Source: Escherichia phage vB_Eco_F22
DNA length: 64,000 nucleotides
Strand: one strand, 5' to 3'
Sequence record: OP870143.1
Shown piece after piece: positions 34,462 to 63,956 of the stretch. The notes under the pieces are model-generated. The model did no database searches, was not told the DNA's origin, and saw nothing but the letters and a program-made list of their open reading frames with translations. The translations under genes were made by a program, and so were the position numbers. How positions within the stretch are numbered: position 1 is the stretch's first letter; every line of letters starts with the position of its first letter.

Positions 34462-34535
34462 GTCCACTTAGCTTAGACTGGGAAAGCAACCGACTAATAA
34501 TCGGAAGGTCACTGGTTCAAATCCAGTAGTGGACA
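34462..34535 (+). tRNA. tRNA gene (74 nt); anticodon loop CTAATAA, anticodon tentatively AAT; CCA not encoded
   Basis: Manual cloverleaf: acceptor GTCCACT/AGTGGAC (7 bp), D-stem GCTT/AAGC with GG in loop, 4-bp anticodon stem CCGA/TCGG, T-arm ACTGG-TTCAAAT-CCAGT. Confidence 0.5.
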
Positions 34536-34769
34536 CCTATTCAGCAGTAACATAGTCCTGATTGCATAGCACTCTAAAGACAACACTGGTAAGACAGTCC
34601 AGTGGCTGCTAATGTATTGTTATTCCCCTCGACGGGAATTTCGCTAGTGAAGGTAACACTTAAAAATCCAAAGCTACGTCTTACTACTATCGGGCTATCA
34701 ACCCACGGTCGCTTAACCCTATAGCGGTAGTAGTTTGACGGCCTGCCTCGTTGACTGCGTTAAAGTCAC

Positions 34770-42300: not shown

Positions 42301-45300
42301 ACTTATCAAACTCAACCATCATATCAACAGCAGGTTTCAATTTGCCTTCCAGAGCTTTAGTCAACTCTTCAGACATAGCTTCACGGGACATTTTATGTAC
42401 CTTGATGCCTAATGCCTGAGCCAGTCCTAACTGGAAGTCAGAGAACGCTTGGCTATTTTCATTACTCAGGTCAATAGTAGAGAAGGTTGGCAGAATTGCT
42501 TCACGAACCAGCTTACTGGATTGTGGGTTGTTCTTACCAAGCATCTGCATACGACCTACTCGGGTCATGTTATAGCCATAGTGAATGGGGGTATCCAAAC
42601 CATTCTCTTGTTCTTTTAGATGATTAATTAAACCGAACAGAGAATCATATGCCATAGATACTGATAAGTTCTTACCTTCCAGTGATTTAGCATTATTTTT
42701 ATTCAGCAAATCAGGATTAAGAGTACCAGCACCCATTAGTTCCAGAATGCTGTCTCGACCCAATGCTTCATAGAAGTTAACCATCGGCATGTGTACACGG
42801 AACTCAGTAGCCTGTTCAGCTTTCAGTGCAGCTTTCTGTTCGGGGGTATTCTTAACAGCAGGATTACGTAACTGAGTTTGGGCCACGGAAGGAATGTCGT
42901 CACCAAAGTACATTTTCTCTTCCGGATTTACCAACACAGCTTCTTCAATTGCTGTAGGGAAATTATTAATAGGGTCTTTATCAGCCAACTTATTAATAGT
43001 GTACAGACCAATAGTCTTATTAGAGTCCGGGTCAATCTCAGACACATCCAGCATAGTCTCTGTAACTGCACCCATCTCAATGAGGGAAGACAGAATCTCT
43101 GTAGCCATTGCCACTGGAATGCCTTTTGTATAACCCAGTGGTGCATTAGGGTTACGATTCAAACCCCAATAAGATTCAATCTTCTGAGCCAGTGAGCTAG
43201 TAGCTTCGACCAGGGTCTGGGCATTCTCAAATTCAGCCAGAATACTTTCTGGTAACAAGGATGCTTCTACTCCAGTAATGGCAGCTACGTCTTTTATGTC
43301 TTTAATGGCAGCATTCTGTGCAGCAGTCAGTCGCCATTGCAGACCAGCAAGCACGGCAGTCTCTAACAACTGGTCATTGAACTTAAAGGTATCACCATCT
43401 TTTTCAACGATATTCAGCAGTTTGCCACCTACCCAACGGTTAGCTTCAGTACCTTCTGCAAAACGTTTACCAACGTTCTTATTAGCAAGGAACTTAGCCA
43501 GTCGTTCAGACAGAGTAGTCTTCAGTGTTTCCCCAAAGTCCATCAAATCTTGGTAACGTTCTAACACATCACCCGTGAGAGCGTTATTTTCTTTTTGAGT
43601 GAATGCTTCAAAGCGAGCAGCAGAAGACAGTGCTTGCTTAATATCAGCTAAAGGAGATTCAGAACCAATGGTACGGGACTTGGGTTCTTCTGGCAGGGTA
43701 AATGCTTTCAGGAACTGGTTCGGTGTCTTTTCATTGTTATAGACAGGGAACACTGTTTCCATCTCAGAAAGAGGTTTGCCACCTACTGTATAATCTGCTT
43801 TTAGCTGAGCCAGCGATACTTCATCTTTCTCCACGTTGTTAGTGTTACGGCCAGAGGTATCTACACCAACCAGAATCTGTGCATTATTGGCTTCAACGAA
43901 AGATTGAACAGTATTGAATTGTTCAGCGGTCAGCTTTTGATTATCAAACAGTTGTAGGGACACAAACGGTTGTTCACTGCCTTTATAGAAAGTAGAGCGA
44001 ATAGAACCAGTATCCAAAGACATATCACGATAGCCATCATGCCCAAATACGTCAGACAGGCTGATATGGTCGCCATTAGAACCAACCACAGTACCATCAG
44101 CAAACAACCACGGACTCTCTCTACGGTCACCACTCTTATTAAGAGTTTCCTGTGAAATGGTATTTTCTTTCACATAAGCATCTCTTTCAGATTCAGTAGG
44201 TTGCTCAATGGTATCCTCATTAGTGAGGGTAGCATCTACTGTTTCAGGCTTAGTAGTAGAAACTTCTTCTGTTTTTGGGCTAGTCTCCTTAGTAGGAGCA
44301 GTCTTATTTTCTACCACTGGTTTAGCTTTAGGCTGTACAGTAGTAGTGTCCTCTTGCACTGGTGCAGGAGTTTCATCAACCTGATTCACTGGTTCATTAG
44401 TCTGTTGAGACTGAGTGGCATCAAGACCACCTTGACGGAACTCTTTAACTACCTGGGCAGCAGGCTTGTTCAGACGTGAATCCAACGAGGTAACTTTCAC
44501 ATGAGAAACATTAAGCTCCGGGTAAGCCGTAGCAAGTGCATTAGCAATATCAGCTACGGTTTTGGCCTCCAGTCCTACTTGCTGTGCAAACTTAACAGAC
44601 TTGGTATCGTAAGGATTAACACCGAGGCCAGTACGACTACGTACCCATTCACGGGAAGGCGAGAGAGCCTGATAATGAACAGACTTATTCTTATCCGCAT
44701 TCCCCGAAATCAGATGCTCATTCAACGCTCCGACCTTATTCTGCATGTGCTGGGCGAACTTCATAAAGTCGCTCAGATAAGCGGAGGCCAAATCGAAGTT
44801 ACCAGAGTTATACGCAGAACGAATGCGTTTCGCATGTTGCAACGCAGAGTACTGTCCTTCATTAGAACGAGACTCGTCGGTTTTAATCTGTTTACTAACA
44901 ATGTCTTGAGGACGTAAGCCTAGTTCTTCTGCTTTAGCGTCGAACTCTCGTGCACCCTGTAACAAGGCAGCAGCAGATTGCAGGGCAGCACGTTGACGAT
45001 TCCCCAGTGTAATCTTACCTTCGCTTGCGTGCTTCAGAACCATGTTCACTGAATCTGCATCCAGTACTTCTGGAGATACATCAGCAGCCATAGCAATGTT
45101 GTTTGCTTGGGCTTGATTAGCTTCTTCAGTAGCTTTCAGCTTACCTGCTTCAGCCTGTTCCTGAATCATAGAATGGATGGCACGGAATGCACGAAGTACT
45201 TTAGGGGTATTCTGTACGTTAGCCATCAGACCAGAGAACTGGTCTACGATTGCAGCAGCAGGGGAACCCTGTTCCAGATTAGCCAGAGCACCCGGGTCAC

Positions 45301-47149
45301 GGTTAATGAAGCTATCCATGGACATGATGTTGTCATACATCTGGATTGCAGCTTCCATTTGAACGTTAGGGTCTTCGGCAGTATTAACCAGGTCAGCCAT
45401 CTTCTGAATAGCTTCTACACGGTTAGTGGAACCAGAAACAGCTTCACGGATTACTGGGTTAGCTTGTTCCAACTCTACCGGGTCGAACTTCATTGCCTGA
45501 GTTAAGTCAGCAGCATACTGGGTAGCAGCAGCTTTCTCTTCCGGAGAAATATCCATTGCATCTACTGCTTCCTGTACAGTTGCTTGTGCTTGTTCTGCCT
45601 GAGCAGCAGCTTCCTGTGCAGCAGCATTAACCGTAGCATCAGCTACAGGGGATGCTTGTTCATTACGCTTGGCAACTTCTTCACCACGTTGAACCAGAAT
45701 GTTAGTAAGAGGAGATGCAGCTTTTGCTAGTGTTTTACCAACCAGAGAAGCACCAGCCAGGGTAGTACGAAGAGTAGGGCCAGCAGCAGCACCGGCAGCT
45801 TTAACAGTTGCACCAGGGACTTGAGCAACTCCAGCACTACCGAAGCCATAAAGTGCACCAAGACCTGCTTGCTCACCAACCCCTTTGAGGGTGTCACGGG
45901 ATGCATCAACGTTTTCTTTGATTGCAGTATTCTGTGCGAACTGACCAAAGCCGGATTGAATACCTTCCTCTACAGTTTCACGCAGCATATTAGAACCAGC
46001 ACCTGCCAGTGAACCTACCTTAAGTGGGTTAAGTTCAAAGCGAGATACCAGTGGGCCGGTAGCAGCAGCAACTGGAGCAGTTAAGCCAGCAGCAATGATA
46101 CCTGTTTCAGATGCAGTCTGACGACGTGCTTCATCAGGAGATAAACCATCAGCAATATGCTGTTGGTAAACAGGAGACTTACTTGCCAGTTCTTGGTGGG
46201 ACATCTTCATGATTTCAGAAGCAGTCTGTTGGTATGCACCACCAGCTTCCATACCACCGATTGCAATAGCAGGTGCAGCAACACGACCAGCAGACAGTGC
46301 AACCTGTGCAGGACGTGAACCTAACCCAGCAGCTAAGGTAATACCCTTAACAGCTTTATCACCACCTACCATTACTTTACCGAGTGCAGATACACCACGA
46401 ATAAGTGGACCACCGGTAAAGAGGGAACCAACACCTTCACTCAGTCCGTCAGAGGCAGCCATACCATTATCAAGTGTATTAGCAACAGAATCGAAAGCAT
46501 CACGACCAATACGAGACAAGGAGGCAACCAAATCGTTCTCCCCATTTTTGATGTCTTGTTCATAAAGTTTCTGATTCTTTTGAGCAGAAATCTGGTTCTG
46601 ATTCTGAACAACCTTACGGGTAGCATTCAGTGCATCAGACTGTAGATTGTGTACGCCTTCATTCAACCAATCCATCCCGGAAGCAATGGTTGCCCCGGCA
46701 TTATCATTGACCAAACCTGTGCCAAGAGCAGCAATGCCCCCAAGGGTATTAGCAACACCAAGACCAACACCAGAAAGAGTATCGCCAAATGCTTCTGCGT
46801 TAGTACGTTGTTTAGATAAGTCCTGACGTACAACATCCGCAGCATTAGCTCGGCTATTAAGAATTTGTAGACCTTGCTCATTACCGTATTTATTAATGAT
46901 TTCTAATGGGGAGGCTTGAGTGAAATCTGCCTGAAGTGAACCTGGTTCGAATGCACCGATTCCAAGATTACCTACACGTCCGGTCTGGAGATTGTAAGCA
47001 TTCTCTGGGGTTAATTGGAAAGGGATTTGCCCTTGTGCAGCTTGCTTCTGAGAGGTTGCAGTAGAGACATCGACTCGCTTAGCATTAGTGATGCTGTCTG
47101 CGAAACCTGCCAGACGGTCAAATGTTGACATAGCATGTTTCCTGTTCAA
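36302..47149 (-). CDS. Giant virion RNA polymerase (N4 gp50-like vRNAP), 3615 aa
   Basis: Single uninterrupted 10.8-kb ORF; central T7-like palm motifs LYVEADGVTNGPINAM (A), KNPLTITIYGSGARG (B), KIFDGMNIG (C); first gene of the leftward block. Confidence 0.8.
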   Translation of the reverse strand: MNRKHAMSTFDRLAGFADSITNAKRVDVSTATSQKQAAQGQIPFQLTPENAYNLQTGRVGNLGIGAFEPGSLQADFTQASPLEIINKYGNEQGLQILNSRANAADVVRQDLSKQRTNAEAFGDTLSGVGLGVANTLGGIAALGTGLVNDNAGATIASGMDWLNEGVHNLQSDALNATRKVVQNQNQISAQKNQKLYEQDIKNGENDLVASLSRIGRDAFDSVANTLDNGMAASDGLSEGVGSLFTGGPLIRGVSALGKVMVGGDKAVKGITLAAGLGSRPAQVALSAGRVAAPAIAIGGMEAGGAYQQTASEIMKMSHQELASKSPVYQQHIADGLSPDEARRQTASETGIIAAGLTAPVAAATGPLVSRFELNPLKVGSLAGAGSNMLRETVEEGIQSGFGQFAQNTAIKENVDASRDTLKGVGEQAGLGALYGFGSAGVAQVPGATVKAAGAAAGPTLRTTLAGASLVGKTLAKAASPLTNILVQRGEEVAKRNEQASPVADATVNAAAQEAAAQAEQAQATVQEAVDAMDISPEEKAAATQYAADLTQAMKFDPVELEQANPVIREAVSGSTNRVEAIQKMADLVNTAEDPNVQMEAAIQMYDNIMSMDSFINRDPGALANLEQGSPAAAIVDQFSGLMANVQNTPKVLRAFRAIHSMIQEQAEAGKLKATEEANQAQANNIAMAADVSPEVLDADSVNMVLKHASEGKITLGNRQRAALQSAAALLQGAREFDAKAEELGLRPQDIVSKQIKTDESRSNEGQYSALQHAKRIRSAYNSGNFDLASAYLSDFMKFAQHMQNKVGALNEHLISGNADKNKSVHYQALSPSREWVRSRTGLGVNPYDTKSVKFAQQVGLEAKTVADIANALATAYPELNVSHVKVTSLDSRLNKPAAQVVKEFRQGGLDATQSQQTNEPVNQVDETPAPVQEDTTTVQPKAKPVVENKTAPTKETSPKTEEVSTTKPETVDATLTNEDTIEQPTESERDAYVKENTISQETLNKSGDRRESPWLFADGTVVGSNGDHISLSDVFGHDGYRDMSLDTGSIRSTFYKGSEQPFVSLQLFDNQKLTAEQFNTVQSFVEANNAQILVGVDTSGRNTNNVEKDEVSLAQLKADYTVGGKPLSEMETVFPVYNNEKTPNQFLKAFTLPEEPKSRTIGSESPLADIKQALSSAARFEAFTQKENNALTGDVLERYQDLMDFGETLKTTLSERLAKFLANKNVGKRFAEGTEANRWVGGKLLNIVEKDGDTFKFNDQLLETAVLAGLQWRLTAAQNAAIKDIKDVAAITGVEASLLPESILAEFENAQTLVEATSSLAQKIESYWGLNRNPNAPLGYTKGIPVAMATEILSSLIEMGAVTETMLDVSEIDPDSNKTIGLYTINKLADKDPINNFPTAIEEAVLVNPEEKMYFGDDIPSVAQTQLRNPAVKNTPEQKAALKAEQATEFRVHMPMVNFYEALGRDSILELMGAGTLNPDLLNKNNAKSLEGKNLSVSMAYDSLFGLINHLKEQENGLDTPIHYGYNMTRVGRMQMLGKNNPQSSKLVREAILPTFSTIDLSNENSQAFSDFQLGLAQALGIKVHKMSREAMSEELTKALEGKLKPAVDMMVEFDKSGHLPTDAVDILKTSLGDNKSFVALMALMEYARYLNSDNRANFNTPLYVEADGVTNGPINAMVLMTGGKFTPNWIKNTAKGGLFFGRAGKTMNEHCSIDDNVDLYEASTNSLQFYLNELRSAYRNNVPVMSQMDHLQKLMDLFIKDFNLNEDGTLDLKRGIAKNPLTITIYGSGARGIAGKMVSAITDAIYERLSDVLQARATDPSISPAMALFGKEAASEADAQAMLDTFLTSMEALTGKIPAKRKGKLFIKEVDGALTGELDPQEFTVSGDALKNLQENMLHFFVEPMRQSIRFTVGEGLMHSTENLQKATQIQSLVLQDMFQQAVQAKLAEKEKDPTWKKGDFLTQEELNEIQKSLSPLAPMIETGSQTFYIAGSENTDVANQVLATNLDDRMRVPMSIYAPSQAGVAGIPFMTIGTGDGMMMQTLSTMKGAPKNTLKIFDGMNIGINDITDASRKANEAVYTSWQGNPIKNVYDSFSKFMKNVDFNKLSDKTIDDIARSALDFEQLSHISRVEGDRQYKIDMIEKSGVNLIERNLRNIALGVDIRHKVMNQVQTTVDQMAAVGAPYVNNGKISLEGLTVDQQVAKLNELFDAELNKRRDAVRAAKAEPVKEVPAEETPVKEVPAMEQVGRVLKSGVRLLSNTAITKLAKEMSPEQQAVLKEVQKSLAAKDYKVVYGTPAQLDAYAIEKNITRPAPEDIEAAEAGNAYGWTNFDDKTIYLVTPSLETLVHELVHASTFESVLAHYEGTPNEAVQNIEDLMNQFRTLDVKDETPAVREAYADALNTINGHLSNGFIEPAMAKAAALNEYMAWGLTNRELISKQKKTTALKTMVQSVYEAIKRLVFGRKKAPANADDMFSGLLFNSSVVMRGQAPTAAVSKDTTLFHNKAYGDNTRLEELGQTFDKLITNYIGSEPVQQVIRKGKFSDAVVNATKVTRDVQAHGFTMNMQEQRLFTNIVAALATEAAISPAALSRAQEYYAHVTKNLTVEAFMADPDSTNPADRYYAQQKFDTIMGANNIEFDAQGRSSLLPTFVGLAMVSEEVRNVLANIPVMKADKKSGNTIDAMLTNIGTAAMSSLNARVAGDTKATNVQEGMDALAQTIMQTSLNAQSFYDSVATPSGNAIDRANQYLVDSIDALSTRALESAREVAANTKNPLVKGAAHAAQLVAAIATEKNGAIVAEGVMAAMNQGKVWQPFHDLVNDLTGRTKSNASVYDLIKAVRAQVQADRQQFREHLPTTIASKFSRKLTNDEWKAMHTGMGKTDLAVLRDTMSLAEIRDLLSDQKIVDREVNKLEADLQKQAGRNWPLISRKSKQLAQFMINGTVGNNLLRNATAISRMLGERQAARSTVDVAQLDKLITLYALEAMNKSDREMLSSLAQTEVDGMDFATSYLVGQRKDEMAKAKSDMRATLNQYKGHIPSETKQGVNLIVAEDSQFGDLIEKSYVRLGTYQGSSANRGPARSYYFAPVQAQAPFSQGILQNVRNTAGGVDIGTGFTMGSMVAGRITDKPSVDRITKALARGERGNEPLLPVYDDKGNVVAYEQSIDPNMLKHIEGENHLARAIGVWRGRQVEEAKAQRFNNMLIENLHSMYENDIKMSASNKSQYVNLLGSKLDPVTADALKLMNSETRQKAESLFGEGELWVRRDMLNDALGYRAASVGDAWSGNSRWSPETLDTFKKAMLGVFGNRAYKYTMGGENLVQNLVKEAKTLIVVKSVVVPAVNFLANLYQMVARGVPVKNIAKSIPQKTAEINQYLKSRLRQVDAEAELRAATNPNQIRKLKAEIQSITDSHKRMSIWPLLEAGEFSSIADAGIGRDDILITEGKLHEYMEKLADKLPKSVRTAGRYALITKDTALFQGIQKTVEYSDFIAKAIIYDELTQRKGKTREEALGRVTEEFVNYDRLPGRFRGYMESVGLMWFYNFKIRSAKVAVSMIRNNPVHAAMAMLAPTPTMFGNVGLPIQDNIFSIAAKGGLDYSWGFGQGLRAHNLNPWMNLVN

Positions 47150-53204: not shown

Positions 53205-53846
53205 TTAATCGTTCAGGCTACCAGCAGCAATCTGTGCTTGAGCCAGTTGAGCCAATTCTGCTTCAGTCAGCGGAGGCAATACTTCAATGGAGAACTCACG
53301 TGCTTCTGTTGCACGGATATCCGGTAAGCCATTCTTACCTTTGCGAGTCGTAATGTTGATGAACTTACGCTCTTTAAGGAACTCATAAATACAGTACGGA
53401 ATATGATAACCATTGTCGGTGACTTCACCGAATGGAACAAACTTACGTACAGTACCCATATATTCGTTAGCTACGGTGATAATCTCACCCGGCAGGTCTT
53501 TCTTCTTAGGATCAAGGTTCTGGATACGTACACGAATCAGTCGAGTCTGTTCTGCACGAATCTTCTGACCCAGAGTCATTTTCTTAACACCTGCTTCTTG
53601 TTTTTCACCCAAAGGATTAACAGCAGTTTCTTTTACTTCTGGTTCATCTTTTGCTTGTGCAGCTTCAATCTTCTCACGGAGTTTCTCAACGGAGATGTTG
53701 TTAGAGAACTTAATATTCATCAATGTTGCACGTTGCTTAAGAACTTCAAGTTCGCTAGGCATTGCAATATCGTTAACGGTATCTTCGTTGCCCTGTACGT
53801 CCAGTTCTACGTCAGTGGTCGGTTTATCGTTAATGCTCATGTTCAT
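53205..53846 (-). CDS. Hypothetical structural protein (213 aa)
   Basis: ORF downstream of the capsid gene. Confidence 0.5.
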   Translation of the reverse strand: MNMSINDKPTTDVELDVQGNEDTVNDIAMPSELEVLKQRATLMNIKFSNNISVEKLREKIEAAQAKDEPEVKETAVNPLGEKQEAGVKKMTLGQKIRAEQTRLIRVRIQNLDPKKKDLPGEIITVANEYMGTVRKFVPFGEVTDNGYHIPYCIYEFLKERKFINITTRKGKNGLPDIRATEAREFSIEVLPPLTEAELAQLAQAQIAAGSLND

Positions 53847-53882
53847 ATTTCCTGTGGTTCAACTAGTTTTATTAAGAGGGGG

Positions 53883-53906
53883 ACTTATGTCCCCCTTGTT
53901 TTATTT
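53883..53906. terminator. Strong hairpin downstream of the major capsid gene (orientation ambiguous)
   Basis: Hairpin AGAGGGGGAC-TTAT-GTCCCCCT; T-run is stronger on the + strand reading than on the - strand. Confidence 0.35.
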
Positions 53907-53913
53907 AGGACTA

Positions 53914-55116
53914 TTACAGAGGAGCAACAGTCTTAATCAGAGCCAGACGTTCTGGACGTTTAACCAGGATACCGTAGTACCACTTGATGGAACTGAAGCC
54001 AGTCTCACCATACGGATCATTACGGTCAGCAGTTTCTCGACCAGGCATCTTAGTCATGATGGAGAACTTAACAGACTTACCATCAGTCTGGAAGCCAATG
54101 GTAGAGAAGGAGTCATCACCAACTACCAGCATCGGGAATACGTCGTAGTGTTCTTGACCACTAACCATAGAAGAACGATAACCTGGGTTAGTAGTAACCT
54201 GAGCACCAGCACCTGCCCAATGCAGCATTTCTGGAACCTGGATAATACGGAACTTGTCGATACAACCAATCTCACCATTCATCAGAGTACCAGCATCAGC
54301 ATAGTGCTGAACCTCGATGAATGCTTTGTTACCGAACAGGTCTTTCATCGCTTTCAGTTCTGGAACCAGTTCAGAACCAACGTACATTACACGAGTACCA
54401 CCAAGTACTTTGGTATCAGTAAGTTTAGAACCAGTGATGATAGTAGTCTGGGTCGGAGTACGGTTCTCAGTAAGAATCTGGTCAAGACGCATCAGGTTCT
54501 TATAAGAAACTACAGACGGGGTAGAACCTTCACCGGTGATGGTAGCATCGGAGGTAGCAGCACCTGCATACAGTACAGTACCAGCAGCAGCCAGCAGGTC
54601 TTTCTGGAGAACAGCTTCAGTCAACTGTACAGCACCGTTCATCAGTTCACGGGACAGGTGCTCTTTCAGTTGGTCGTCAGAATCAAAGTCCAGAGACTCT
54701 TGAGTAAATTCGTAGAAGAAACCGAACTTATGAATGGAACCTTCACGAGACAGACGGGTAAAGCCTACACGGTTAACACGACCACCATTCTCTGTCAGCA
54801 GAGGCAGTTTAGAAGTGATGTTACCAACGTCTCGGGAAGAACCATACAGGTTACCATTAACGATGGTAGCACCCTTAGCATCAATACCCTGGTCGTTGAT
54901 GTTCTTATCATCAAGCAGTGGGACGTACTCATACACCTTAACAGTCTTACCATAGTTCTTCGGCATGTTAATGGTGTTAGCCAGTGGCATGAAATACTGG
55001 TCTTTACGGGACTGAATAATAGCTTTCTTCAGCCAGTAATAGGTATTCATCTGGTCGGAACCAGCACCATCAATGCTAGATTTCTGGCCGTCAATTGGGG
55101 CGTTATAGTTTAACAT
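53914..55116 (-). CDS. Major capsid protein candidate (N4 gp56-like, 400 aa)
   Basis: Size and position (portal - small protein - scaffold-like - this gene) match N4-like capsid modules; strong hairpin directly downstream. Confidence 0.55.
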
Positions 55117-56730: not shown

Positions 56731-59001
56731 TTACAGGTTCATGCCAAGAGCCGATGCTGGGTCTTGGCTAGGGTCATAGTATTGGGAACTAAGTGAATAA
56801 GCCGGGTCTTGTTGAGCAGCTAAATCACGTTCTGGTATAGAGTTCCCGTCAGTCAAAGTATTATATCCAACAGCAGCAGATATGTTGGGGGTAGTTTCCC
56901 CTTCTTTAATAGGTGTTGTCAATGCCTTAGTTATCTGAAGGTTCTGGTTTCCTTGGGATTGTGCTTTTTGTTTTTCCATATCACGAGCATGTTTAGTACC
57001 AGATTCCTGTTCCAGATAATCCAGGTCTTTAAGGTCACCAGCAGAAGCAGCCTCTTTAGCCTTAGCCATATTGAGTGCAATCTTACTTTGTAACTCTTCA
57101 TTCTCAAGCTGTGCTTTCTGAATTGCCAATTGCTTAAGCTGTTCTTCCATAGGGTCTGGTTGTGGTTGCCAGGTACGTAACTCATGGGCCAGGTCAGGCA
57201 TACGTTTAAGTTCTGCAATCTTAGCTACAAGAGATAATGTAATAGTCTGGTCAACCGTATTACCCAATGTTTGAACCATGAAGCTCAAGTCCTGAGATTT
57301 CTGGTTATCAATTTCAGCAGTGTTAATATCAACCTCAATGTCGAAGTTACCTTTAAGGTCTTCACGGTTAATCTCTACATACTGCTCGTTAGTAATACGT
57401 ACGACTTCTTTCTCAGATAAGAACACAGCATTCATTGCACAAATCTTAGTACCAATGTCTGCCATACCTTTAGCCAATCGACGAAGGATTGCCATCTCAC
57501 GTTTGGATGCTGCATCAAGTGCACCACGAATACCGGCAGCCACATCTCCATAAGCTGAACCAGTTACACCACCAGAGAATGCTTTGACCCCAGTTAATGC
57601 TTCTGCTTCCTGGTTTTGCATCTGAGTCATTACTATTGCTGACTGAGGTAACTCAGGGAACTTATGTTCCATAATGGCCTGACTAGGATTACCTTGCATT
57701 GGGTTATATTCATAGTCTTGTCCATCGTCATATCGACGTCGGTTTAGTGTATCCAGCATCCCTTTAGGATAACCACGTTGACCATTTGCACTTCGACCTA
57801 ACAGGTCAATCATCCCACGCATAGTTGCACCAAGAATTGCTTGGTTATCTCCTAACAGTTCAGCATCAGCTTCACCGAATAGCTCTCGTTTACGTGGCAT
57901 GTAAGGAACAACTACCAAAGGTAACTTACCATCCGGGAAAGGGTTCTTCTCCATACGAATAAGAGTAGAGCCAATCCAGGTAGCAACAATTGGTTCCAGA
58001 GAACCATCATCATTGATGTCGTAAAATCCCCAGTACTCATAAGCAACGACTTTCTTACGTAGTGCATCCTTAAACTGGAAGTCGCTTGGAGTTTTACTCT
58101 CATGGTCTGGATCAGTCATAGGACTGGAGCTTTCCCAATCAATCTTATCTAAATTGTGGTAACGATCTTTGTTCTTCATGAGGTCTGCTTTACATGTCTC
58201 AAACGAGATAACTGCATACAGAGCCTTATCCAAATCACCATTACAACTAGGGTCAATAACTACGTTATTAGGGTTAAGCATTTCAACGGTGGGTCTGTTA
58301 ACCAGTGCCTTCTCTACTTCTACTTCAGTAACCCCAGTCTGGATTGCATAGGTAGCTTCCCCAGTTTCATTGAAGTAGTTAACAGCTTCTTTAATATCTT
58401 CAGGCATTGTTTCATCGTACTCACGAGGATTCTCTGCCTGAAGCTGTAAAGCCTGTTGAAGAACATCTGCCTGTTCCTGGTTCTCAATTGGATACAACTG
58501 AAATACTGGAGTTTCAGTTTTAATCTTAACAGTCTTACGTTCCCAACCAATACGAGCAATACCAGTACCGTCATCTACGACACTGTGTACGTAATCATCT
58601 ATCAGTTTCACTTTATTAAGCTGGGTACGGAATTGGTAGTTAAGAACTAATTCATTCTGACGTGCAGCTAATTCATCTTCAAAAGTAACCGGAGTTACTT
58701 TAAAGAGTTTATTAGATGAGAGGAATGGTTCAGACAATGGAGCATATCGCCACTCTGCCTGACGGCGAACCAGTCTAGGCTGGACTTGCGAACGTCCCTT
58801 AACCTTTGGGGGTTTAGCCTTACCCTTGACTTCCATCAGGTCATTCCACTCACGAATCTGTGCCATAATCGCATCGTGAGCAGGTTTAGCTGATTCCAAA
58901 TCACCCTTCAGCAATTGGATACTTGGTTCCTTCTTCCAGTCCGTTATCTTCTCTGATTGAGCCGGGTCTGGTAAAGGCTTAAAAGTGTCTTGGTGTTCCA
59001 T
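56731..59001 (-). CDS. Portal protein candidate (N4 gp59-like, 756 aa)
   Basis: Size and synteny upstream of the capsid assembly genes. Confidence 0.55.
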
Positions 59002-59009
59002 AGTTATTC

Positions 59010-59531
59010 CTATTCAAAAAGTTTACGGTCAGCCTGAATTTGTTTACCCAACTCAATTAGTTGGTTGTCACGGAGTCTAACAGTTGCCCGGAGTTCTTCA
59101 ACCAAACGTCTGCCTTCTTCAAGACTGTTGTCGAGTCTGGCTGCATGGCTTGCAAGACTTCTGCACTCAAGGGTTCCGGCTTCGGCTTGACGTTTATATA
59201 CCGATGCTCGTCTTTCAGACTGTTGCATCCGGCTGTCGTAATCACTGCTAACGCGAGCAAGCTCGCTTGCGTAATTACTCTCAGCCGTCTGCAACCGGGA
59301 AGTGAGTAACCCGACTTCATAACTATGGTTTCTTTGGAGAGCATTGTATTTGTCCTGTAGTTTTTGTATTGCCTTCAGGTCTTCAACCTTTTGGACATCC
59401 CACTTCTTTTGAACAGTAGACTGCCCATTGGAATTGCCCCAAAAGTAAATGGTGGCCCCGAGGACCACCACCAGAAGATAAGGCCAACCTTTAGAGATTA
59501 GCATCTTCATTACATGCCTCCAGTGGTACAT
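59010..59531 (-). CDS. Rz-like inner-membrane spanin (i-spanin)
   Basis: N-terminal transmembrane helix [16 protein letters not shown] followed by coiled-coil-like periplasmic domain; contains embedded lipoprotein ORF. Confidence 0.55.
59057..59320 (-). CDS. Rz1-like outer-membrane lipoprotein spanin (o-spanin), embedded in the Rz gene in another frame
   Basis: Lipobox-like [12 protein letters not shown] with Cys, Pro-rich KPKPEP segment; fully inside the Rz ORF; start codon uncertain (track ORF 59057..59344). Confidence 0.5.
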   Translation of the reverse strand: MKSGYSLPGCRRLRVITQASLLALAVITTAGCNSLKDEHRYINVKPKPEPLSAEVLQAMQPDSTTVLKKADVWLKNSGQLLDSVTTN

Positions 59532-60126
59532 TACCGATTCGGTTAGCTACCCAACCATACGTAAAGTCTGGCATGTTCAATGAGGTGTAGTGGTTCAGTT
59601 GTTTAGCATCAAGCAACTTAATCATTACCTTACATGCTGCAACTTTGCCTCGTTTTTTCTGTAATACTTTATATGCATTAACAGTACCTGCACCGACTTT
59701 ACCATCAACTTGTATTTTAGGGTAGTCTTTGCCATCACGGGACATTTCATTAAGAGATTGCTGCAACCATTTAGCTGGTCTGGTTACACCAGTGTTAACA
59801 CCAGCATCAACCAGTTTGTGTGTTACAGCAGGAGATATATCAGCGAAAGCTACGAAGTTAGGCTTGAGTACGTAGTCATCAATGTATATCTCAGCAGCCA
59901 TCTCTTTCGATAAACCCTTCATGGAACCATTCCAACCATACTCAGTAGCCAGAACTTCTTTATGAGACTTAGCTACCGATTGGGTAATACCATGATTAGT
60001 TTCCCCACCTGGGTCACGAGGATTGTTTACGTACCCTCCTTCCATATAGAACACTGCCCCCAGAATAGCAGCGACAACTCCTCCCACTGCACCACCTTTT
60101 GCAGCAAGTTTTTGTTTAGCTTTCAT
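59491..60126 (-). CDS. Endolysin, GH108-type N-acetylmuramidase with N-terminal signal-anchor (SAR-like) segment
   Basis: YMEGGYVNNPRDPGGETNHGIT matches the GH108 N-terminal signature; Gly/Ala-rich hydrophobic stretch GGAVGGVVAAILGAVF. Confidence 0.65.
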   Translation of the reverse strand: MKAKQKLAAKGGAVGGVVAAILGAVFYMEGGYVNNPRDPGGETNHGITQSVAKSHKEVLATEYGWNGSMKGLSKEMAAEIYIDDYVLKPNFVAFADISPAVTHKLVDAGVNTGVTRPAKWLQQSLNEMSRDGKDYPKIQVDGKVGAGTVNAYKVLQKKRGKVAACKVMIKLLDAKQLNHYTSLNMPDFTYGWVANRIGNVPLEACNEDANL

Positions 60127-60442
60127 GAGAATCTTCCTTTGGATGGAATCGTATTAGTCTGCCCACAATATTTAAAGCAAACAGTGCGATTGTAATACTG
60201 GAACCATGTGGGATATCTTCAAGGATGTGACGGGGTAGTCCTGTTAGCATTGGTTGGATAATATCTACAGCAGAAAACAGAATTAATCCAAACGTACTAA
60301 TCTGAACAGATGCCCACTTCCAGGACTTCTTCCAGTTAGGTACTAGTCCTATCTTTCTTTTTAGCTTGCAAACCATGCGAATATCTCCCGTCTTGCAGCA
60401 GCCAATACACCAATAATTGCACCTGCTCCAGCCCAAACCCAC
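60116..60442 (-). CDS. Putative holin (two transmembrane helices; true start probably near 60376)
   Basis: Small membrane protein adjacent to the endolysin. Confidence 0.4.
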   Translation of the reverse strand: MGLGWSRCNYWCIGCCKTGDIRMVCKLKRKIGLVPNWKKSWKWASVQISTFGLILFSAVDIIQPMLTGLPRHILEDIPHGSSITIALFALNIVGRLIRFHPKEDSHES

Positions 60443-60693
60443 TTACCAAAAATCCCAGCACCGGCAACTTTATGTTTAATGGTGATGAACTCTTCAATGG
60501 TGGGTTCAGACTTAGTGATGCTCTCTTCTACCCGTTTAAGTCGGGTACTAAGGTCGCCCATAGACTCACTTAGCTTTTTAATAGACTCTTCCATTTTCTC
60601 CCTTTCTCTCGATTCACGAGTTTGGTTTTCGAAAATGTTTCTCAGTCTCTCCTCGAGTCTGGCTAGAGTTACGTTATCTGGTTCATTTCCCAT
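60361..60693 (-). CDS. Coiled-coil protein with C-terminal transmembrane helix (holin/antiholin or lysis-associated candidate)
   Basis: 110 aa; charged helical N-terminus, C-terminal GIFGKWVWAGAGAIIGVLAAA. Confidence 0.4.
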   Translation of the reverse strand: MGNEPDNVTLARLEERLRNIFENQTRESREREKMEESIKKLSESMGDLSTRLKRVEESITKSEPTIEEFITIKHKVAGAGIFGKWVWAGAGAIIGVLAAARREIFAWFAS

Positions 60694-60761
60694 AGGGACT
60701 TTCTCAGGTTAGTTAAGTCGTGATTGACTGAAACAGTCTACATAAAGGATTGTTTGGGATA

Positions 60762-60788
60762 CAACAAAAAAGCCCCCAGACGGGGGCT
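60762..60788 (-). terminator. Intrinsic terminator downstream of the tail gene
   Basis: Hairpin AGCCCCC-AGAC-GGGGGCT; minus-strand reading followed by TTTTTTGTTG. Confidence 0.65.
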
Positions 60789-60797
60789 TTGTTTTAT

Positions 60798-63053
60798 TTA
60801 GGTGTTATCAGCAACTACCTCAAGTACTCCGTTATTAGAACGAAGGCGTTTGTAAGTACTATCCCCCACATCTCGGAGTATAATCCCTTTGGTAGCATAC
60901 ATAGTACCGAAACGTCCATCCTTAGAACCAATATCCTGCAAGGAATCTGTTACTGCTGTCATAACCCCTGCAACACGATTAACTTTACGGGCATACCAGA
61001 CATTTTTGCCAACATCTTTATCCATAGCAACATCGAAGTTAAAGTTTGCAGTATTGGTAGATAAACCATTCATTGCTGCACTAGAAGTATCAACAGTAAT
61101 CTTGAGAGTACCTCCAGTAAGTCCATCAGCAGAAACGTACAACTCTGCATTCTTAAAGTTACGAATGCCACCTAGACCATTGGCAAAGGTAACTTTAGAT
61201 GCATCACCATAAACAATTAACCGATTCTCTTTGAATCGTTCTGCGTAAAGACCGAAAGGAGTAGCGTCCTGATCTTCAATATTAATTGTTGCATGGTTAG
61301 TGTTAATGGTGGGTGGGATACCAAATGTAATAGTATTCCCTTTAAACTCTTTAACTTTGAAATTCAAACGATACTCATCAGCATAATCATTTGCATATCT
61401 GTTCTGAAGTTCACAATCAATAAAGCTATAACACTCAAAACCCATAGCAGCAGGCCAGCCAGTATCAATAATACTGCCTATGATGGTTGTGCCTACAAAC
61501 TTAATATTACGGGCATTACCAGCATTGGATACAGCACCCTCAGAGTGCATACTATGTAGCACGCCACCCACAACCAGAATATCGTTAACAGTCCCCGGTA
61601 CGGATACAGTCTGGAATGCACACTTACCGGTGTTAACAATTTTAGGGTTAATAACACGAATGTTGTAAGGGTTTCCCCCTTCAGCTTCAATATCAATACC
61701 TGCTTCCGGTCCGGTATAATGAGTACCAATCCCACCAGCTTTATTGCCTGAGCGGGTAATTACTGGATTAATGATATCAATGTTAGCTCCACCAGTCAGG
61801 GAGTAGCAGTTGCGCCCACAGGAATCCCAGTAACAGTCTTCAATAACAGTGCGTGGAACAATATCCAAGAAACTGAAGCTACCGGTAGATTGATGATATA
61901 AGCCATCTACAGGCGAATTAAGGTATTTATGTCGGTAAACACGAGCACCTGCTGACTGGTTAATCCACATGTTATAACAAGGAATCTGATAACCAGTGTT
62001 ACCAAACTTACCCCCCCATACAGCAGAGGCTAAGTTACCATCACTGGTCCCACCATTAATTACGACGTTAGGTGCTTTGTACAGTTTAATAAGAAAACCT
62101 TGGTAAGCCATATAGCTATAATCAGGGGTTTCAGCTACAACATCCGGTGCAATAGAACCAGTAACAGGATCAAAAGCCCCTAAACGCATACCGTCATTAA
62201 TCTTAAGTGTCCAGTTACTCATCTCCAGTTCGATATTAGCATCCGTCATATGAATGGAGAACCAGCCTTTAGCAGAAGCATCTGTCCAGGCACGCTGCTC
62301 ATAGGAAGGTTTATAAGAACCACCCTGACCAGTAGAACCAGTGAGATACTGGGAACCTACTAAACTAGTGCCAGCAGGGAATATCACCTTAACCGGTTCA
62401 GTTACCTGTGTGCTTAAGTATTGACCCAATTCCCAAAGAGCGTCTGCGTTATCAGCAGAGTCAACAGTTACACCAAAATCCGTAGCATAGATTACACGTC
62501 TACCCATTAAATCCATGTTAGCAGCTACGTTGGTATTAATTGCATTAGGCATACGAACATAGGGAACTTCTTCAGACTTAACTAATGGGCTTAACTTACT
62601 CCAGGCATCATTAGCTACACCACCTGAGTTTTCTGGTGTAGAGGATGCCGGGACAACTTTAGGGAATGCACCATTCCAAATATAATACTCACCATTATGA
62701 ATCAGTCTTTGGTTTTTAACGGTAAGGGTAGCCCCAGTAGTAAATGAACCGGGAGAGTTAATATACTCCTTACGTTCTACAGCCAGAGCACCTAAGTCAA
62801 CATTACCAGCAGAGTGAACTAATACCCCAGCAGGACTAAGACTTACAGCAGTAACACCTGAACCAATATCAGCAGGTAAGGAGTAAGCACGCTGTGACGC
62901 TTTGTCATAGATGACTTTATAACCGCTTAGTACAGCACCAGTAGAGAAGTAAACAACCTCAGATTGCTTAACCCCAAAGTGACGGGCTACTGCTTGTTTG
63001 TTGGTTAAGATTCCAGTTGAACCCTTACCACCTTGTGAAAACATTTCGTTCAT
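60798..63053 (-). CDS. Tail protein (tailspike/sheath-like, receptor-binding candidate), 751 aa
   Basis: Large late ORF flanked by minus-strand terminators; Gly/Asn/Thr-rich repeats suggestive of beta-structure. Confidence 0.5.
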   Translation of the reverse strand: MNEMFSQGGKGSTGILTNKQAVARHFGVKQSEVVYFSTGAVLSGYKVIYDKASQRAYSLPADIGSGVTAVSLSPAGVLVHSAGNVDLGALAVERKEYINSPGSFTTGATLTVKNQRLIHNGEYYIWNGAFPKVVPASSTPENSGGVANDAWSKLSPLVKSEEVPYVRMPNAINTNVAANMDLMGRRVIYATDFGVTVDSADNADALWELGQYLSTQVTEPVKVIFPAGTSLVGSQYLTGSTGQGGSYKPSYEQRAWTDASAKGWFSIHMTDANIELEMSNWTLKINDGMRLGAFDPVTGSIAPDVVAETPDYSYMAYQGFLIKLYKAPNVVINGGTSDGNLASAVWGGKFGNTGYQIPCYNMWINQSAGARVYRHKYLNSPVDGLYHQSTGSFSFLDIVPRTVIEDCYWDSCGRNCYSLTGGANIDIINPVITRSGNKAGGIGTHYTGPEAGIDIEAEGGNPYNIRVINPKIVNTGKCAFQTVSVPGTVNDILVVGGVLHSMHSEGAVSNAGNARNIKFVGTTIIGSIIDTGWPAAMGFECYSFIDCELQNRYANDYADEYRLNFKVKEFKGNTITFGIPPTINTNHATINIEDQDATPFGLYAERFKENRLIVYGDASKVTFANGLGGIRNFKNAELYVSADGLTGGTLKITVDTSSAAMNGLSTNTANFNFDVAMDKDVGKNVWYARKVNRVAGVMTAVTDSLQDIGSKDGRFGTMYATKGIILRDVGDSTYKRLRSNNGVLEVVADNT

Positions 63054-63065
63054 ATAAACCTCATT

Positions 63066-63096
63066 GTTTTTCTATAAAAGCCCCCTCGGGGGCTTT
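63066..63096 (-). terminator. Intrinsic terminator between the two tail genes
   Basis: Hairpin AAAGCCCCC-TCG-GGGGCTTT; minus-strand reading followed by TTTTATAGAAAAA. Confidence 0.55.
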
Positions 63097-63098
63097 CT

Positions 63099-63956
63099 TT
63101 AAAAGAATTGAGAATCAATTGAGTAGGTAATTGTCCCACGTAATTCAGCAGTAGGAGTAATGTCCGATTCTAATAGTGCTGTCGTAGCCTCTTCAGGCTG
63201 TTTAAGTATTTGAATTACATTAGACCCTCTATTCATTACTACAGAAAGTTGTGGGGTTCCTGGTTGCAATCCAGTATATGCACTAATAGTACCACTTGCA
63301 GCATTCTTAGCAGGGTAGGGCATATTACGTATTTGCATAGCACCCGTTTGACCACCTGCACCATTAAGCTTAATAAAGAACTCTACGGTAACTGTATTAC
63401 CTGTTTTAGTGTACTTAATATCTTTAGTAGCACCTCCCACATCTGAGGTTACTGAACCAAAAGTAATAGCTGCAAGGGGAACGTCAGCAGTTTCATTCCA
63501 TGCCTCAAAATTGATGAGGTTGGAATCTCCAGTTACAATATGTATAAACTTGTTGCTGCCAGTATTAACAATAATCTTAGAGCCAGCAGCATTAGCACTT
63601 ACCCCAATCTTAGGCAGTTCTCCATTAGAGAAACGTCCATTGTTAAAGACAATATGGTTGTTAGGTCCATGTATCCACATATCCCTGGAGTATGTAGTTC
63701 CATATGCTAAAAAAGTATTAAATATGATAAAGTTATCATTACCTACTGAAATTAAAGGGTTTTGCTCATTTGTTTTAGGCAAGCAATAAAAATCATCAAC
63801 AGTCATATCATTGCCAGAATTAAAATGAGCAGCTACCCCATAACCTGCATCAGTAGCAGATGGTAACTCAGAACCACAACCACTAATGTGAAGTCCATTG
63901 TTATTGTCAAAGTAATAGGCAGTACGCACCGTACCATCAGAAGCACAGCTTTGCAT
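63099..63956 (-). CDS. Tail fiber-like or appendage protein (285 aa)
   Basis: Late ORF next to the tail gene; Gly/Asn/Thr-rich. Confidence 0.45.
   Translation of the reverse strand: MQSCASDGTVRTAYYFDNNNGLHISGCGSELPSATDAGYGVAAHFNSGNDMTVDDFYCLPKTNEQNPLISVGNDNFIIFNTFLAYGTTYSRDMWIHGPNNHIVFNNGRFSNGELPKIGVSANAAGSKIIVNTGSNKFIHIVTGDSNLINFEAWNETADVPLAAITFGSVTSDVGGATKDIKYTKTGNTVTVEFFIKLNGAGGQTGAMQIRNMPYPAKNAASGTISAYTGLQPGTPQLSVVMNRGSNVIQILKQPEEATTALLESDITPTAELRGTITYSIDSQFF

Follow-up and report, generated by a model that had tools for sequence, protein, structure and literature searches.

The lysis cassette of Escherichia phage vB_Eco_F22 is very probably a G7C-like orthologue of the phage N4 multigene lysis system

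Introduction

The closest functionally described counterpart of the locus reported here is the lysis system of phage N4, whose gp63-gp62-gp61-gp60/gp60a cassette was dissected by Awuah et al. of the Ramsey laboratory in a 2025 preprint (bioRxiv 10.1101/2025.11.12.688109; all N4 experiments mentioned below are from this source). We analyzed positions 59010 to 60693 in a 64,000-nucleotide (nt) stretch of Escherichia phage vB_Eco_F22 (sequence record OP870143.1; the whole stretch is referred to as the window), where five overlapping genes are predicted to encode a pinholin, a second holin, a signal-anchor-release (SAR) endolysin, and an inner-membrane spanin (i-spanin) with an embedded outer-membrane lipoprotein spanin (o-spanin). 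The cassette is very probably a G7C-like orthologue of the N4 system. Such a cassette is already known, being annotated in near-identical phages and characterized functionally as an orthologue in N4.

In N4, the genes for gp60 to gp63 suffice for rapid lysis. The N4 gp63 protein is a pinholin with a single C-terminal transmembrane domain (TMD), which complements the phage 21 pinholin S21 but not lambda S, kills cells when produced alone, and releases SAR but not soluble endolysins. Its rapid-lysis mutations cluster at residues S62, T65, I70, T71, and I72, in a juxtamembrane region named the "LIN domain." The gp62 protein is a late-triggering, non-essential, large-hole holin that can release the soluble lambda R endolysin. 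The gp61 protein is a SAR endolysin that functions together with lambda S as well as with the S21 pinholin, complementing endolysin defects in both backgrounds; it is membrane associated, causes slow rounding of cells when expressed alone, and brings about rapid lysis when negative charge is added to its SAR domain. Purified gp61 is reported in the preprint to have N-acetylmuramidase activity, and the first description of the muramidase is credited there to Stojkovic and Rothman-Denes (2007). Finally, gp60 and the embedded gp60a, the mature form of which has 56 residues, complement lambda RzRz1.

Source of the sequence and organization of the cassette

When positions 58900 to 60800 were compared with the phage collection by megablast, the closest match was Escherichia phage E20 (97.6% identity, 100% query coverage), and G7C, Bas96, PhAPEC5/7, and others matched with 96 to 97% identity, all of them Gamaleyavirus. 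The source is a G7C-like Gamaleyavirus (Schitoviridae, Enquatrovirinae), i.e., an N4-like podophage. All five lysis proteins have counterparts in the N4 species, with amino acid identities from 57% to 70%. The interval 59010 to 60693 has as its exact limits the stop codon of the Rz-like open reading frame (ORF) and the gp63-like start codon, and all five genes lie on the minus strand. In the order of transcription, the genes and the elements within them are as follows:

60361 to 60693, minus strand: gp63-like predicted pinholin, 110 amino acids; phrog_5211 (4.4e-49); 60% identity to the N4-species gp63

60116 to 60376, minus strand: gp62-like predicted class II holin, 86 amino acids; PF25612 DUF7940 and phrog_1356; 57% identity to the N4-species gp62

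59491 to 60126, minus strand: gp61-like predicted SAR endolysin, 211 amino acids; GH108 and PG_binding_3 domains, phrog_315; 70% identity to the N4-species gp61

60043 to 60096, minus strand: putative SAR domain of the endolysin, residues 11 to 28, GGAVGGVVAAILGAVFYM; recognized from its Gly+Ala content, the relatives, and the alignment to 6v40

60031 to 60042, minus strand: EGGY motif of the endolysin, E29 to Y32; read in the sequence and aligned to EGGY of Sen1395 and 6v40

59010 to 59510, minus strand: gp60-like i-spanin, 166 amino acids; phrog_6197 (1.4e-77); 58% identity to the N4-species gp60

59057 to 59320, minus strand: gp60a-like o-spanin, precursor of 87 amino acids in the +1 frame of the i-spanin gene; 61% identity to the N4-species gp60a

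59225 to 59236, minus strand: lipobox T-A-G-C of the o-spanin, read in the sequence; acylated Cys codon at 59225 to 59227

60769 to 60790, both strands: hairpin predicted to act as an intrinsic terminator in both directions, AAAGCCCCC-loop-GGGGGCTTT with a T-run after it, located in the gap that separates the cassette from the tailspike stop codon

The overlaps between neighboring genes measure 16, 11, and 20 nt, and the portal ATG (59001) follows the final stop codon of the cassette after no more than 8 nt, which points to one translationally packed unit; 660 codons are accommodated in 1,684 nt. On one flank lies the portal gene (56731 to 59001; Pfam PF23899 SU10_portal, 3.5e-151), and on the other the tailspike gene (60798 to 63053; 751 amino acids with a Pfam Tail_spike_N domain).

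An earlier note on this DNA, made from the letters alone, had proposed a lysis cassette with spanins, a GH108 endolysin, and small membrane proteins; each of these elements is present and matches an orthologue annotation or experiment. The note was also right in placing the cassette between portal and tail genes, but this arrangement is conserved in every relative fetched and is the rule in Schitoviridae, and thus nothing unusual. The two small membrane-protein genes that it saw are found at 60116 to 60376 and 60361 to 60693; they "follow" the endolysin gene in plus-strand coordinates only, however, and lie upstream of it in transcription.

The i-spanin and the embedded o-spanin

The most likely start of the i-spanin gene is ATG 59510 (166 amino acids) and not 59531: GGAGG lies 6 nt before ATG 59510, and the frame is open back to 59531. 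The protein consists of an N-terminal hydrophobic segment (approximately residues 8 to 27; predicted TMD) and a helical periplasmic domain with a single periplasmic cysteine, Cys116, which is kept in 9 of 12 aligned i-spanins including the one in the window (the Burkholderia row was not counted). PHROGs assigned it to phrog_6197, "Rz-like spanin." No lambda-type Rz model of Pfam matched the i-spanin above its cutoff; only a sub-threshold match to DUF2514 and weak matches to coiled-coil families were obtained.

The o-spanin ORF lies wholly within the 59010-to-59531 ORF in the +1 frame and gives 95 amino acids from ATG 59344 or 87 amino acids from ATG 59320, neither of which is preceded by a strong Shine-Dalgarno sequence. 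The 87-residue precursor has a 31-residue leader with a basic n-region and a hydrophobic core, and the mature part of 56 residues begins with CNSLK. Its lipobox, T-A-G-C, fits the relaxed PROSITE-style lipoprotein pattern, with the Thr at position -3 falling outside the strict consensus [LVI][ASTVI][GAS]C of Kongari et al. (PMC6139136). Since the residue at +2 is Asn, there is no Asp inner-membrane retention signal. The leader contains a second Cys motif, LPGC, which was not accepted as a lipobox, there being no hydrophobic region ahead of it. Of the 56 residues of the mature protein, 4 are Pro, grouped in VKPKPEPL, with no proline run, and there is no Cys besides the acylated one; the "Pro-rich tail" of the earlier note thus finds some backing in this cluster but was overstated. 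No match to the embedded o-spanin was obtained in Pfam, PHROGs, or NCBIfam. O-spanins are usually without matches in family libraries.

How often such a frame arises by chance was estimated with shuffles of the i-spanin gene (codon order or synonymous). Alternative-frame ORFs with an ATG start and 87 or more codons appeared in 2.5 to 3.2% of the shuffles, and such ORFs with a lipobox in addition in 0.2 to 0.5%. We then compared 14 related loci, comprising those of Gamaleyavirus, the N4 species, and Klebsiella, Shigella, Achromobacter, Burkholderia, Erwinia, Xanthomonas, Stenotrophomonas, Pseudomonas, and Alcaligenes phages, whose i-spanins are between 98% and 37% identical to that of the window. 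All 14 have an open +1 frame that codes for a signal sequence with the lipobox Cys at its end, followed by a mature part of 56 to 63 amino acids with several invariant positions. Moreover, the o-spanin is better conserved than the host i-spanin frame in each of the 11 loci outside the genus, for example 65% versus 43.5% identity in Stenotrophomonas phage C121 and 74% versus 54% in Achromobacter phage Axy13. We consider this comparative evidence decisive for a real o-spanin gene. A lipoprotein-like ORF with lipobox TAGC that is fully embedded, out of frame, in an Rz-like gene is therefore what the locus contains, as the earlier note had put it, the o-spanin at 59057 to 59320 lying inside 59010 to 59510.

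The comparison with lambda holds for architecture and predicted function but not for the sequence family. Lambda Rz1 is proline rich with a penta-proline stretch, and both lambda subunits have a Cys that forms an intermolecular disulfide (PMC6139136). With only 4 Pro, no o-spanin Cys besides the acylated one, and a single i-spanin Cys, the proteins of the window are not members of the lambda Rz/Rz1 sequence families, and by sequence similarity the pair is assigned to the N4 gp60/gp60a spanin family (phrog_6197).

The endolysin and its N-terminal segment

The gp61-like protein is a predicted N-acetylmuramidase. Judged against the Pfam gathering scores, both PF05838 Glyco_hydro_108 (6.9e-20; 71.8 bits versus a cutoff of 21.2) and PF09374 PG_binding_3 (1.2e-7; 32.3 bits versus 24.6) were matched, confirming the GH108-type muramidase of the earlier note. 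The protein also matched phrog_315 endolysin in PHROGs (3.4e-41) and, in HMMER searches, the PDB entries 6v3z (Sen1395; 4.5e-28) and 6v40 (1.9e-20). NCBIfam gave sub-threshold matches only, e.g., to a holin-associated N-acetylmuramidase (57 bits versus a cutoff of 240).

The N-terminus reads MKAKQKLAAK-GGAVGGVVAAILGAVFYM-EGGYVNNPRDPGGETNHG, in which four Lys are followed by 18 uncharged residues and then directly by EGGY, whose Glu (E29) we take to be the GH108 catalytic residue. Gly and Ala make up 47 to 58% of the hydrophobic stretch, versus 14 to 18% of the i-spanin TMD, so the Gly/Ala-rich hydrophobic N-terminus described earlier is indeed present. In all 14 relatives, a SAR-like segment stands directly before a conserved E(G/K)G(Y/W) motif. 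When the protein was aligned with solved GH108 proteins by HMMER, residues 19 to 28 fell on the polar segment DEIFAAILSR that precedes EGGY in 6v40; by this alignment, the first helix of the catalytic domain would be formed by the C-terminal half of the hydrophobic stretch. The active site may thus be incomplete for as long as the SAR helix is in the bilayer, as in other SAR endolysins. The 70% identity to N4 gp61, together with a hydrophobic stretch that abuts EGGY, supports a SAR domain rather than a cleavable signal. The GenBank record of Stenotrophomonas phage C121 calls its homologue "SAR endolysin N-acetylmuramidase."

The predicted holin and pinholin

For the gp62-like holin, ATG 60376 (86 amino acids), which is preceded by a GGGAG Shine-Dalgarno sequence, is the most likely start, and not the upstream GTG 60442, where the Shine-Dalgarno sequence is weak. 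Two hydrophobic segments (approximately residues 21 to 43 and 58 to 76) are predicted TMDs, and the protein matched PF25612 DUF7940 (1.3e-13; 51.8 bits versus a cutoff of 27) and phrog_1356, "holin" (2e-30). The holin gene shares 11 nt with the start of the endolysin gene. A dual-start holin/antiholin arrangement was rejected on account of the weak Shine-Dalgarno sequence at the GTG and because in Klebsiella phage VLCpiP4b and Shigella phage Moo19 a stop codon interrupts the 22 additional N-terminal codons; on these grounds we regard the 86-residue form as the conserved product.

The gp63-like protein has a charged, heptad-like N-terminal coiled coil, predicted to be cytoplasmic, and one C-terminal Gly/Ala-rich TMD at approximately residues 76 to 99. 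Its PHROGs family, phrog_5211, has no assigned function. The similarity to the N4-species gp63 extends over 110 amino acids (e=3.7e-46) and is highest in the C-terminal part, where 45 of 53 residues match, and the N4 rapid-lysis mutation sites S62, T65, I70, T71, and I72 are all identical in the window protein. This supports a pinholin of the N4 gp63 type, with a predicted small-hole function. S21-type pinholins have two TMDs, the first of which leaves the membrane; gp63 has a single hydrophobic segment, at its C-terminal end. The next in-frame ATG of gp63 is that of Met34 (60592 to 60594), which is preceded by AAGGGAG at a spacing of just ~3 nt.

Alternative readings of the cassette

Two other accounts of the endolysin N-terminus were weighed. 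It could be a cleavable Sec signal peptide, leaving a secreted enzyme that is restrained only by the energized membrane; the basic n-region MKAKQKLAAK is compatible with this, and the small residues A19, A20, G23, and A24 could satisfy the -3/-1 rule. However, a polar c-region is missing, the hydrophobic stretch passing straight into EGGY, and since residues 19 to 28 align to the segment before EGGY of the solved GH108 proteins, cleavage would strip off part of the GH108 fold. N4 gp61, moreover, is membrane associated, and the premature lysis caused by negative charges in its SAR domain is a SAR phenotype. We regard signal cleavage as improbable. Somewhat less probable again is a canonical holin-endolysin system, in which the hydrophobic N-terminal helix is the buried first helix of a soluble cytoplasmic endolysin that gp62 releases through large holes. 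The overlap of the hydrophobic segment with the first helix of the GH108 fold would agree with this, as would the ability of N4 gp62 to release soluble lambda R, by which the cassette type offers large holes. Yet with a pinholin as the only holin, N4 gp61 brings about lysis, and it rounds cells slowly when expressed alone; N4 lysis is not blocked by deletion of gp62, and the 18 uncharged residues after four Lys are unlike the DEIFAAILSR and DEILGK segments of the soluble homologues.

The identity of gp63 and of the embedded frame can likewise be questioned. Homologues of gp63 in ST4, phi G17, IME11, Moonfish, Moo19, Kuerle, Holyagarpour, HN04, and E20 are labeled as tape-measure proteins, and PHROG 5211 being without an assigned function leaves room for a structural or assembly protein, with gp62 as the sole holin. 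We give this very little credence: 110 amino acids with one C-terminal TMD are far too small for a tape measure, the gene overlaps the holin gene by 16 nt, and the N4 protein, whose rapid-lysis residues recur here, complements the S21 pinholin and kills cells alone. Hardly credible at all is that the lipoprotein-like ORF is a chance open frame and that the i-spanin-like protein acts alone or is not a spanin. The shuffles do produce an alternative-frame ORF of at least 87 codons in ~3% of cases, both candidate ATGs are without a strong Shine-Dalgarno sequence, and many GenBank records leave the ORF unannotated; against this stand the open +1 frame, signal sequence, and lipobox Cys that all 14 phages share, even where i-spanin identity falls to 37%, the better conservation of the o-spanin than of its host frame in 11 phages outside the genus, with several invariant positions, and the complementation of lambda RzRz1 by N4 gp60/gp60a.

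Some observations weigh against the orthology with the N4 system, or against parts of it. A position-independent sum of Hessa-scale values failed to separate the SAR segment from ordinary TMDs, the Gly/Ala fraction being the sole informative measure that did so. The single-sequence AlphaFold2 model of gp61 was unusable (predicted local distance difference test score, 36.3; predicted template-modeling score, 0.29), and the proposed docking of the SAR helix into the GH108 fold is consequently based on the sequence alignment. The alternative start Met17 of N4 gp63 is a Leu here, and the long form of gp62, which starts with ATG in N4, would require a GTG with a weak Shine-Dalgarno sequence in the window. 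Scanning for sigma-70-like promoters revealed none on the minus strand upstream of gp63. Finally, G7C, the type phage of the genus, is reported to be without lysis inhibition (bioRxiv 10.1101/2025.11.12.688109), and the regulatory behavior of N4 is therefore not transferable to this phage.

Proposed course of lysis

The gene structure, domain families, SAR-like composition, lipobox, embedded architecture with its conservation, and N4 orthology are found in the window itself; the functional steps we infer from the N4 experiments and from the general pinholin, SAR endolysin, and spanin model. The five overlapping genes would be expressed late, along with the downstream portal and structural genes, with transcription probably starting in the conserved stretch past the hairpin at 60769 to 60790. 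Sec would export gp61, and the weakly hydrophobic, Gly/Ala-rich SAR helix would keep the inactive enzyme anchored in the inner membrane; this helix would include the residues that form the first GH108 helix, just before the catalytic Glu of EGGY. Meanwhile, gp63 would build up in the inner membrane until, at a programmed time, small lethal holes collapse the membrane potential. The SAR helix would then exit the bilayer, and the muramidase would refold and degrade the peptidoglycan around the whole cell. The gp62 protein may serve as an accessory, back-up holin making larger holes later. After loss of the wall, the outer membrane would be disrupted, probably by membrane fusion, through the i-spanin of the inner membrane and the lipoprotein o-spanin of the outer membrane.

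Transcription signals and RNA elements

The hairpin at 60769 to 60790 has 9 pairs, 6 of them G-C, and each strand bears a T-run. Conservation in G7C and Bas96 extends over the ~75 nt that lie between this hairpin and the gp63 ATG. Overall, the sigma-70 scan yielded one site, compared with 3.5 in shuffles. Six terminator-like sites were detected in 58900 to 61000, versus 1.6 expected, of which only that at 60769 to 60790, seen on both strands, is intergenic. The i-spanin TMD codons contain a terminator-like hairpin of 11 pairs with a T-rich run behind it (59448 to 59472, minus strand); this and the other hairpins in coding sequence (60073 to 60052, 59502 to 59483, and 60087 to 60104) were set aside as probable coding by-products. 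No RNA family of Rfam was identified in 58500 to 61500.

Similar G+C-rich hairpins with a T-run flank the tailspike gene, one downstream (60769 to 60790) and one upstream (~63080 to 63100), and match in position the 16-bp "repeat_region" features on either side of G7C gp63.1. They may be terminators and also recombination boundaries for tailspike exchange.

A possible recombination tract in the cassette and the modular tailspike

Over 2.9 kb, the window differs from E20 by 45 substitutions, all within 59536 to 60652 (gp61 to gp63) and mostly synonymous. By gene range, gp61, gp62, and gp63 have 17, 13, and 16 differences, respectively, one of which lies in the gp62/gp63 overlap, and there are 6 amino acid changes. 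The flanks, 58400 to 59535 and 60653 to 61300, are 100% identical to E20, and identity to E20 is complete across the 5' end of the portal gene, the whole spanin pair, the intergenic region, and the tailspike. Within the phage collection, the best match to 59536 to 60652 is 96.7% (PhAPEC5), with no closer donor there. The segment, 1.1 kb in length, looks like a recombination tract that covers the endolysin, holin, and pinholin genes but not those of the spanins.

We tentatively propose, as a combined idea that is rather unlikely to hold in full, that the lysis-timing genes gp61 to gp63 are exchanged by homologous recombination as a unit apart from the spanins among Gamaleyaviruses and that the LIN domain, which is kept in full although the genus reportedly lacks lysis inhibition, is a general pinholin gating element, the trigger for lysis inhibition lying elsewhere.

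The tailspike protein next to the cassette is 100% identical to that of E20. Over residues 103 to 751, it shares 86% identity with a hypothetical protein from "Bacteriophage CHX131," an unrelated 39-kb phage of human stool, and over residues 20 to 750 it shares 59% identity with a tail spike from a Salmonella phage of 157 kb; in other Gamaleyaviruses, the similarity is confined to the N-terminal ~150 to 220 residues. By these similarities, the tailspike is modular, its receptor-binding domain having been swapped.

Annotation of the cassette and other features of the window

As a discovery, the cassette carries little weight, near-identical genomes being annotated and the N4 orthologue having been dissected experimentally. 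Its value lies in annotation. The small gene upstream of the holin, whose homologues go under the name "tail length tape-measure protein" or "tape measure protein" in the GenBank entries of many phages, is mislabeled and encodes a predicted pinholin orthologue. The embedded o-spanin is present in all of the relatives; it is annotated in Bas96, Pokken, and Holyagarpour and is missing from many records of N4-like phages, including those of VEc25, VLCpiP4b, Axy13, C121, and E20. The start codons of the i-spanin and holin genes were refined; in the E20 record, the i-spanin gene is truncated to 219 nt and the holin gene is omitted. In addition, G7C-like phages may be useful for finding the trigger of lysis inhibition, since they keep the regulatory residues of the N4 pinholin and reportedly lack lysis inhibition.

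Elsewhere in the window, ARAGORN identified a single tRNA gene, for tRNA-Ile (anticodon AAT; 34462 to 34537, plus strand), in the half with the early and middle genes. Among the structural genes, an ORF of 472 amino acids (53695 to 55113, plus strand) is almost exactly antisense to one of 400 amino acids (53914 to 55116, minus strand) and is probably a codon-bias artifact, though unusually long. An ORF of 3,615 amino acids occupies 36302 to 47149 on the minus strand. Its size and position are what we would expect of the virion-encapsidated RNA polymerase that defines N4-like phages, and it presumably fits the taxonomic placement.

Comparison with known lysis systems

Among Gamaleyaviruses, the cassettes of G7C, Bas96, E20, PhAPEC5/7, and Mimir124 are the same as that of the window at 95 to 100% protein identity, with gp60 and gp60a of E20 being 100% identical, whereas the annotated start codons vary from record to record. 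The G7C record lists gp60 with the embedded gp60' ("putative Rz/RzI spanin"), gp61 as N-acetylmuramidase, gp62 as putative holin, and gp63 as hypothetical; the Bas96 genes Bas96_0006 to Bas96_0010 include those annotated "Rz-like spanin," "o-spanin," "endolysin," and "holin"; and in Mimir124 the embedded ORF was marked manually.

With N4, the window shares the five genes, their order and orientation, and their site between tail-appendage genes and the portal gene, as well as a mature o-spanin of 56 amino acids, a SAR domain that abuts EGGY, and a gp63 with a C-terminal TMD and the LIN-domain residues. Besides the differences in the gp63 and gp62 starts and in the reported lysis inhibition, the lipobox is IVGC in N4 and TAGC here.

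The window spanins resemble lambda Rz/Rz1 in the embedded +1 frame and in pairing a type II inner-membrane protein, whose periplasmic domain is helical, with a small outer-membrane lipoprotein. In contrast to lambda, the window o-spanin has neither a penta-proline stretch nor a non-acylated Cys, and the i-spanin has one periplasmic Cys. The solved GH108 proteins Sen1395 (6v3z), 6v40, and NMB1012 (2ikb) share GH108 plus PG_binding_3 and the motif EGGYVN..DPGG with the endolysin (4.5e-28 to 6e-12); they differ from it near the N-terminus, where a polar segment (DEILGK, DEIFAAILSR) takes the place of the uncharged, Gly/Ala-rich SAR segment of the window protein.

In its logic, the cassette resembles those of phage 21 (S21 68, R21, and Rz/Rz1) and P1 (Lyz), in which a Sec-exported, tethered endolysin is freed by the depolarization that a small-hole holin causes. 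The catalytic domain of R21 and Lyz has a T4-lysozyme-like fold, which is unrelated to GH108. S21 has two TMDs, whereas the pinholin of the window has one C-terminal TMD and a cytoplasmic coiled coil, and there is a second holin here. As in phage 21, an embedded two-component spanin would act after the endolysin, and N4 gp63 and gp61 can substitute for S21 and R21.

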